Source: Pseudomonas phage SW_PA2862_11_24. From it: a DNA stretch of 64,000 nucleotides. The position numbers and the translations under genes were made by a program. The stretch is taken from sequence record PV574406.1. The stretch is one strand, 5' to 3'. The notes under the pieces were generated by a model, which had not been told where the DNA came from, did not search any database, and saw only the letters and a program-made list of their open reading frames with translations. This document shows positions 19,127 to 19,395 of the stretch, one piece after another (positions within the stretch are counted from its first letter, which is position 1; each line of letters opens with the position of its first letter).

Positions 19127-19395
19127 GACTAAGTAACAACGGTCCATGTAAAACTGTGTGAATTCAGGGGACAGCCGGAACGGCCAATCCTGAGCCAAGC
19201 TAGAGTGATCTAGAAAGGTGCAACGACTATCGAAACCACGGCGGGAGCCGGAAGGGAGTAGAGTAGGGTCAAGTGACCCGAAGCGCACAGGGCGCGAGAG
19301 CGTCATGATATAGTCTGGTCTGCATGGGAACATGCAGCGGTAACCCTTGAGCAAGGTTACGGGGGAGGATTAACGACCCTCCCTGAACACAACGG
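19127..19395 (+). ncRNA. ORF-less group I-like self-splicing intron interrupting DNA polymerase motif B
   Basis: 269 nt with stops in all frames, splitting AKNVKYGF | TYGAQAGKVAKTIG, which rejoins into the T7 gp5 motif-B pattern AKTFIYGFLYGAG. Exon 1 ends in U (19126); internal guide GGUCCA (19141-19146) pairs with exon UGGAUU giving a U.G at the splice site; intron ends in G (19395). Confidence 0.55.

Follow-up and report, generated by a model that had tools for sequence, protein, structure and literature searches.

Since SPO1 (1990), it has been known that group I introns can interrupt phage polymerase genes at conserved motifs. Such introns are established in the polymerase genes of SPO1, the T7-like phages PhiI/W31, LUZ24, and Pf-WMP3 (PMC3428280), and the same source, citing Bonocora and Shub 2004 for the subgroup IA2 introns of PhiI/W31, gives their position as "site 881." The LUZ24 polymerase intron is spliced in vivo, as demonstrated by polymerase chain reaction on complementary DNA and by ONT-cappable-seq (PMC10914365), and the insert of phage Ab02, which carries an open reading frame (ORF), was described as an intron related to that of LUZ24 (Essoh et al. 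2015; PMC4482731). Using the 64,000-nucleotide (nt) stretch of Pseudomonas phage SW_PA2862_11_24 (PV574406.1), which as a whole we refer to as the window, we find that the essential family-A DNA polymerase gene is split inside motif B by a 269-nt insert, which is very probably an ORF-less group I intron of an IA2-like type without helix P2, inserted in the Cys codon (U|GU) of the sequence KYG-C-TYG of this Pakpunavirus gene. The feature is already known in kind and is an ordinary phage element.

The insert and its occurrence in related phages

The polymerase is divided between two same-strand ORFs, 17127..19136 (669 amino acids, aa) and 19421..20110 (229 aa), and the stretch that separates them contains stop codons in all six frames. 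Joining the exons gives a single 904-aa ORF with a match to Pfam DNA_pol_A (3.7e-13), and with motif B restored intact. Exon 1 is colinear with the uninterrupted genes of Ab08 and JG004 as far as base 19125, and in every intron-bearing record the homology of exon 2 to intron-less alleles starts at G19395; the start of exon 2 completes the Cys codon U|GU. The coordinates of the three parts, in the register that we consider most likely, are as follows.

17127..19125, + strand: exon 1 of the family-A DNA polymerase, with the 3'-5' exonuclease domain, motif A, and the first half of motif B; ends ...AAA UAU GGA U
19126..19394, + strand: probable ORF-less group I intron, IA2-like, 269 nt; starts UGACUAAG..., ends ...ACAACG
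19395..20110, + strand: exon 2 of the polymerase, starting GU ACA UAC GGC, with the second half of motif B and motif C (YHDE); in frame with the ORF 19421..20110

The analysis shows the insertion and its borders to within 1 nt, together with its fold, the covariation between alleles, the different allele states, and the kinship with known introns. Using the spliced junction and a 69-nt intron-less junction as queries, we observe that the insert is optional: the gene is uninterrupted in 59 of 123 related phage records (counts include GenBank/RefSeq duplicates), among them Ab08, PAK_P1, PAK_P4, PaP1, JG004, C11, and MAG1, and contains the intron in the other 64. In 64 records the homology to the junction breaks exactly at the junction, and it is these same 64 that hold the intron. 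The insertion point is defined because 59 related records carry an uninterrupted polymerase gene, with the intron-less site reading AAATACGGGTGTACGTACGGT; the uninterrupted alleles of Ab08, JG004, EM, and Bitten are colinear across the site, and removal of the insert restores the reading frame.

A search with the Rfam models identified RF00028 (Intron_gpI, group I intron) at 19069-19337 with 74.5 bits (gathering score 50; E = 4.5e-17), a full-length model match and the sole RNA family at gathering level in the 64-kb window. All parts of the conserved core were located, i.e., P3-P4-P5-P6 and P7-P3'-P8-P7' with the P3/P7 pseudoknot, together with a P1 guide that forms a U.G wobble at the 5' splice site and a terminal omega-G at G19394, which is followed by G19395. 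An in-frame UAA at 19134-19136 closes the reading frame of exon 1 three codons into the intron.

These results agree in most respects with the first-pass annotation, a set of claims made from the letters alone, which had proposed a family-A polymerase split inside motif B by an ORF-less group I-like intron and had named a covariance-model scan and a fold as ways to check it. The two same-strand ORFs do join to one DNA_pol_A protein, the scan scored above the gathering threshold, and the minimum free energy (MFE) fold contains P3 to P9.2, with the P7 pseudoknot GACUAU/AUAGUC present; nine covarying pairs and the 59 intron-less records point the same way. The GGUCCA guide that it noticed was found as GGTCCA at 19141-19146, 14 nt into the insert as it had drawn it, and is backed by a compensatory change in P1.

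Fold, covariation, and subgroup

The elements of the predicted fold, all on the + strand, are listed below.

19118-19127 / 19140-19149, + strand: P1 hairpin, AUAUGGAU|UG with the internal guide CGGUCCAUGU; reactive wobble U19125.G19142; loop L1 at 19128-19139
P2, + strand: absent; an AAAA joiner (19150-19153) links the 3' strand of P1 to P3
19154-19160 / 19284-19290, + strand: P3, from the MFE fold and the Rfam alignment
19164-19169 / 19188-19193, + strand: P4, from the MFE fold and the Rfam alignment
19174-19177 / 19181-19184, + strand: P5, from the MFE fold; two compensatory pairs
19194-19196 / 19217-19219, + strand: P6, from the MFE fold and the Rfam alignment
19200-19204 / 19209-19213, + strand: P6a, with a 4-nt loop in the window; site of the endonuclease ORF in Ab02-type alleles
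19225-19230 / 19310-19315, + strand: P7, GACUAU/AUAGUC, pseudoknot with P3
19239-19242 / 19247-19250, + strand: P7.1
19263-19265, + strand: GUA linker between P7.1 and P7.2
19266-19270 / 19275-19279, + strand: P7.2; one compensatory pair
19291-19295 / 19300-19304, + strand: P8; one compensatory pair
19320-19326 / 19331-19337, + strand: P9, with a GGAA loop
19340-19345 / 19355-19360, + strand: P9.1; two compensatory pairs; outside the Rfam match
19363-19368 / 19378-19383, + strand: P9.2; two compensatory pairs; outside the Rfam match
19394, + strand: omega-G

Folding without constraints gave an MFE structure (-90.1 kcal/mol, z = -2.6 relative to shuffled sequences) that contains all the nested helices from P3 to P9.2, and the Rfam alignment over the region 19154-19219 has high posterior probabilities. 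For the covariation analysis we aligned the four types of allele, two of them after removal of the ORF. Across 72 modelled pairs, 95.8% of cells are paired, compared with 26-43% after a shift of the 3' partners by 1-3 columns, and two-sided changes occur in nine pairs (one each in P1, P7.2, and P8, and two each in P5, P9.1, and P9.2), compared with 0-1 in the slid controls. The exon sequence AUAUGGAU (19118-19125) is complementary to the guide GUCCAUGU (19142-19149), and the compensatory change in P1 replaces an A-U by a G-C pair, with exon GGA and guide UCC in the window and exon GGG and guide CCC in the 263-nt and Ab02 alleles; since exon and guide change together between alleles, the assignment of the guide is supported. 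The U.G pair of P1 was excluded from the formal covariation count, as MAFFT misplaced the exon U, and was argued by hand. P3, P4, P6, P7, P7.1, and P9 are invariant among the alleles, and their support comes from the Rfam model and not from covariation. P7, invariant across the four Pakpunavirus alleles, is also found in the LUZ24 and Yep-phi introns.

The subgroup assignment follows from the region between P7 and P3', where IA2 introns contain the two extra hairpins P7.1 and P7.2 linked by G-U-A (PMC3428280). The window intron has these features, with P7.1 at 19239-19250, GUA at 19263-19265, and P7.2 at 19266-19279.

The Rfam coordinates cannot be used as intron borders, since 19069-19125 is coding exon 1, present in intron-less alleles, and since the match ends at P9 (19337). 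The P1/P2 part of the model (the first 57 nt of the match) is misplaced onto the coding sequence of exon 1. The same shift is present in GenBank OQ721915 and PQ429081, where the 263-nt form of the intron is labelled Intron_gpI (36808-37070 in each) from the raw Rfam match, which starts 57 nt inside exon 1 and omits P9.1 and P9.2, i.e., the last 57 nt.

Splice register, splicing, and alternative explanations

Several points weigh against the reading of the insert as an IA2-like intron that interrupts a Cys codon. The covariation has a narrow base of only four alleles from two or three lineages. We searched by eye for P10 and P9.0 and found no convincing pairing; manual inspection of the L1/5' guide region against the start of exon 2 (GUACAU) gave at most 3 base pairs (GUA 19133-19135 with UAC), which are missing in the other alleles. 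The P2 helix, listed for IA2, is absent, with only AAAA between P1 and P3, but the Pf-WMP3 polymerase intron is an accepted IA2 intron that is likewise without P2 (PMC3428280), and P2 is thus a variable feature of IA2 and not a strict requirement. The register is ambiguous from the window sequence alone, with tandem wobbles (U19125.G19142 and U19126.G19141) at one end and GG (19394-19395) at the other. Finally, Phe would be acceptable at the junction position, as it is the residue found in T7 and LUZ24.

The pattern stated in the first-pass annotation, an exon that ends in U and an insert that ends in G, fits either register, 19126-19394 or 19127-19395, with T at 19125 and 19126 and G at 19394 and 19395. 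We consider 19126-19394 the most likely, with the junction U19125|G19395 in a Cys codon and one base to the left of the borders given in that annotation, whose insert and length of 269 nt hold good and whose register is probably shifted by +1. Uninterrupted alleles read ...AAA TAC GGG TGT ACG TAC GGT..., i.e., KYGCTYG(AQ), and the residue is Cys (TGT/TGC) in Ab08, JG004, EM, and the P. protegens phage Bitten, Ile in an E. coli Phapecoctavirus, and Phe in none. At the 5' splice site, the 263-nt and ORF-bearing alleles leave no ambiguity (GGGU|AAGAG), and the 3' end of the 263-nt allele (...ACAACG|GUACA) is that of the window; because this allele combines the unambiguous 5' site with the window's 3' end, the splice in the window is placed at U|GU. 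In the ORF-bearing alleles the 3' end is ...AUAUCG|GUACG, and the junction is again U|GU. In addition, relative to P3, the guide base G19142 occupies the position of the reactive G in the unambiguous alleles.

The same intron placed at 19127-19395, spliced at U19126|U19396 with a UUU (Phe) junction, is an unlikely alternative that does have arguments on its side: U19126.G19141 is likewise a wobble within P1, G19395 is likewise a G, Phe occupies the equivalent motif B position in the two phages named above, and an ungapped alignment of the 3' tail with that of the Yersinia phage Yep-phi (GAACACUAAGG|U versus GAACACAACGG|U) favours G19395. This alignment is not binding, since the tail from GAAC to the terminal G varies in length (4 nt in LUZ24 and 6 nt in Yep-phi). 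Against a Phe junction stand the nearest intron-less relatives, all of which have Cys, the shared register of the guide, and the 263-nt allele, whose 3' end and 5' site force ...ACAACG|GU, as well as the ORF-bearing alleles, which share this 5' site and terminate in ...AUAUCG|GU. Our confidence in the Cys register is high, and is held short of certainty because Phe is chemically acceptable and because the ungapped Yep-phi alignment favours the other G. The junction written in the first-pass annotation as YGF|TYGAQ should thus probably read YGC|TYGAQ, since the intron-less relatives all have Cys and none has Phe. The predicted cDNA of the spliced RNA reads UAUGGAUGUACAUAC / GGAUGUACA in the Cys register and UAUGGAUUUACAUAC / GGAUUUACA in the Phe register, and the predicted junction peptide of the spliced polymerase is NVKYGCTYGAQAGK.

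The copies of CAACGG that the first-pass annotation had observed at both boundaries are present (19137-19142 and 19390-19395), and the candidate role of this repeat as a functional boundary signal was rejected, in that it is not conserved in other alleles: the 5' copy is missing in the 263-nt and Ab02-type alleles, and the 3' end of Ab02 differs. A comparison of ACAACGGTCCAT (L1/guide, 19135-19147) with ACAACGGTACAT (3' splice junction, 19388-19399) gives matches at 11 of 12 positions. The GTnCAT part of this repeat arises because the exon context TATGGAT|GTACATA is near-palindromic, and the shared ACAACG may be due to chance or to a small duplication when the 5' end of the window allele arose.

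An intron is not the only way to read two ORFs in this position. Most GenBank records annotate two separate polymerase coding sequences (CDSs), and split polymerases exist in some T4-like phages, e.g., gp43A/B of Aes508, so that the two ORFs might be translated separately and assembled, with the insert staying in the RNA and the intron dead or decorative. We regard this as very improbable: the motif B helix itself is interrupted (RSPAKNVKYG|CTYGAQ), exon 2 upstream of the annotated GTG at 19421 contains neither an ATG nor a Shine-Dalgarno-like sequence, and a start at this GTG would lose nine conserved codons. Moreover, the insert has an intact, covarying ribozyme core that scores well above the Rfam threshold, the gene is continuous in half of the genus, and all 64 intron-bearing records are isolated phages in a genus where the polymerase is otherwise uninterrupted. 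Inteins, group II introns, and bypass elements can all interrupt phage replication genes, and the Aes508 polymerase itself contains an intein; here the probability of any such element is close to nil. An intein is excluded by stops in all frames, as already argued in the first-pass annotation, and by the lack of an ORF continuous with both exteins; a group II intron finds no Rfam match even at E <= 1 and no reverse-transcriptase ORF; and the translational bypass of T4 gene 60 spans 50 nt, quite unlike a gap of 269 nt that contains a group I core.

Returning to the group I intron, we infer its catalysis, and the choice between the two adjacent registers, and propose a mechanism by homology to characterized phage group I introns and to the established group I pathway. 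Exon 1, intron, and exon 2 would be transcribed together as one RNA, in which P1 would form between the guide GUCCAUGU and the last bases of exon 1, placing the U19125.G19142 wobble at the 5' splice site. An exogenous guanosine bound in P7 would attack after U19125, the freed 3'-OH of exon 1 would attack after G19394, and the exons would be ligated into a messenger RNA for the single 904-aa polymerase; by analogy, the window allele presumably self-splices. In unspliced RNA, translation would stop at the UAA at 19134-19136, and a functional polymerase would require splicing because exon 2 lacks its own ATG or Shine-Dalgarno sequence. A promoter-like TTGACA-17-TATCAT is located upstream of exon 1 (17069-17097), and no terminator-like site was found inside the intron.

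Alleles in Pakpunavirus and related introns in other phages

The polymerase region (17127-20110) is 97-99% identical to that of >100 Pseudomonas aeruginosa myophages of the genus Pakpunavirus (vB_PA45_GUMS, PaoP5, K5, K8, and others), and the gene order, i.e., primase/helicase, polymerase, small ORFs, RNase H, HNH, PNK, ThyX, and RNR, is that of vB_VIPPAEUMC01, coordinate for coordinate. On these grounds the source phage is assigned to Pakpunavirus, PaoP5/K8 type. The 64 intron-bearing records in this genus comprise approximately 33 of the 269-nt type (99-100% identical), 13 of a 263-nt type, and 18 ORF-bearing (approximately 710 nt), for an ORF-less total of 46 records.

The ORF-bearing alleles (Ab02, YS35, Ps12, Ps25, PaGz-1, and others) contain a 159-aa ORF in loop P6a, with its 3' end running into P6'-P7-P7.1, and in Ab02 this ORF matches Pfam Endonuclease_7 (PF02945, 1.8e-22), a His-Me/HNH nuclease. 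The Ab02-type intron shares with the window the gene, the insertion point (U|GU of the Cys codon), a ribozyme that is approximately 86% identical over the core, and the invariant P3, P4, P6, P7, P7.1, and P9, and differs in its length of approximately 710 nt with the 159-aa Endonuclease VII/HNH ORF in P6a, where the window has a 4-nt loop, and in the sequences of L1/guide, P5, P7.2, P8, P9.1, and P9.2, with compensatory changes. No ORF, and thus no intron-encoded homing endonuclease, was found in the window intron. Its sequence identifies it as the endonuclease-less state of a mobile intron, which, because it has no ORF, would not be autonomously mobile.

The 263-nt allele (OQ721915 and PQ429081, i.e., vB_VIPPAEUMC01/02a, as well as 20Sep416, LPS-5, and bmx-p3; 3292-3554 in the PQ429081 locus extract) lies at the same site, is also ORF-less, and matches the window intron exactly over the stretch that begins at P6a and continues to the 3' end. 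Over the first 82 columns of the alignment (L1, guide, and P3-P5) it is, in contrast, identical to the Ab02 type; compared with this allele, the window intron has an L1 that is longer by 6 nt and a guide of GUCC versus GCCC. This pattern suggests that the 263-nt allele is a mosaic produced by recombination within the intron between co-infecting phages.

The exon flanks also vary. The first 38 nt of exon 2 (19396-19433) show three synonymous differences from intron-less alleles in the 269-nt and 263-nt types (92% identity), one difference in YS35, PaGz-1, and ITTPL, and none in most ORF-bearing records (Ab02, Ps12, Ps25, JHP, and IQPL), and at exon 1 position -5, a base that pairs with the guide, TAT replaces TAC. 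Within this small sample, the differences are consistent with co-conversion or with guide-exon co-adaptation.

Elsewhere in the window nothing intron-like was found beyond the polymerase site with Rfam, also at the relaxed limit of E <= 1, and no tRNA genes were found. A split thymidylate synthase (29110-30075 and 30078-30422, +), suggested by two neighbouring ORFs that both bear this name in a relative, was rejected as a further candidate: the first ORF is ThyX (Pfam Thy1, 1.7e-14), the second is small and unrelated (114 aa without a Pfam match), and no intron-like RNA lies between them. Two free-standing ORFs are annotated as HNH endonucleases in a close relative, namely 24238-24801 (+; phrog_1985, with Pfam HNH below threshold at 17.3 versus 21.4 bits) and 49956-50558 (+; phrog_953, with no Pfam HNH match). 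In the genome of SPA01 (OP875100.2), a 69-nt stretch at 32907-32975 is 80% identical to the P7.1-P8 core of the intron and lies approximately 24 kb upstream of the intron-less polymerase junction of that phage; some Pakpunavirus genomes may contain a second group I intron elsewhere. The corresponding position is not covered by the window.

In the literature on introns of Pakpunavirus and PaoP5, we found no explicit description of the 269-nt ORF-less allele or of its exact borders; the sole account found was that of the ORF-bearing form (Essoh et al. 2015). This is an annotation gap rather than a discovery, with nothing new in principle biologically. In most of the 64 intron-bearing records the polymerase is entered as two proteins or under the label "hypothetical protein," and the mis-annotated records include several therapeutic-phage candidates; the correct feature would join 17127..19125 to 19395..20110 and encode a single polymerase of 904 aa. 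The genus also provides a natural series (59 empty sites, 18 introns with an ORF, and 46 without) in which to study the dynamics of the homing cycle and intron-mediated competition between phages.

Of the introns described in other phages, that of LUZ24 (1644-2312 in its locus extract) also lies in motif B of a family-A polymerase, has its ORF between P6 and P7, and encodes an endonuclease, gp35, that is 55% identical (7e-48) to the Ab02-type endonuclease. Its RNA shares P7 (GACUAU/AUAGUC) and the P3-P4 region with the window intron and is otherwise only patchily similar. It differs in that LUZ24 is a Bruynoghevirus podovirus, in its insertion point 6 nt upstream (T|AT of Tyr, AKTFI-Y-AF), and in its length of 669 nt with the ORF. 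The intron of Yep-phi, a T7-like Yersinia phage (Berlinvirus), located at 1955-2634 in its locus extract, is likewise inserted in motif B, has a ribozyme 3' half that is approximately 73% identical to that of the window over 144 nt, and encodes an endonuclease that is 50% identical (2e-51) to that of Ab02; it differs in its podovirus genome, in its insertion 11 nt upstream (TT|T of Phe, AKT-F-IYG), and in its length of 680 nt with the ORF.

The insertions in Yep-phi, LUZ24, and Pakpunavirus are thus successively 5 and 6 nt apart, at approximately E. coli Pol I codons 760, 762, and 764. As a tentative reading, which we consider possible yet doubtful as a whole, motif B may act as a 12-nt hotspot in the family-A polymerases of phages, in which one IA2 lineage with 50-55% identical Endonuclease VII/HNH endonucleases has occupied three staggered positions in three unrelated phage groups, with Pakpunavirus preserving every step of the homing cycle side by side (unoccupied site, ORF-bearing intron, intron without an ORF, and mosaic) and with the ORF-less allele persisting by destroying the target of the endonuclease and not merely decaying. 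If this were true, the ORF-less intron would shield a phage from its ORF-bearing relatives in co-infection.

A related core also occurs in another gene. In the Pseudomonas syringae phage KIL3, RF00028 matches at 2415-2666 (94.7 bits) and 3303-3525 (68.9 bits) of the locus extract; the first match lies inside the joined large terminase CDS (1688-3342) and is 77% identical to the core of the window intron, and the second lies at the 3' end of this CDS and extends beyond it.

The classical IA2 introns, i.e., those of T4 td/nrdB/nrdD(sunY), of SPO1/SP82/Bastille, and of Pf-WMP3, share with the window intron the P7.1 and P7.2 hairpins joined by GUA, an ORF in P6a when one is present, a position in a conserved catalytic motif of a gene for DNA metabolism, and an in-frame stop just inside the intron. 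They differ in that they occupy other genes or other polymerase sites and in that only short stretches of the core can be aligned; for example, the polymerase introns of SPO1 and phiL7 are located elsewhere in the gene, at TGRLSS..P, upstream of motif A.

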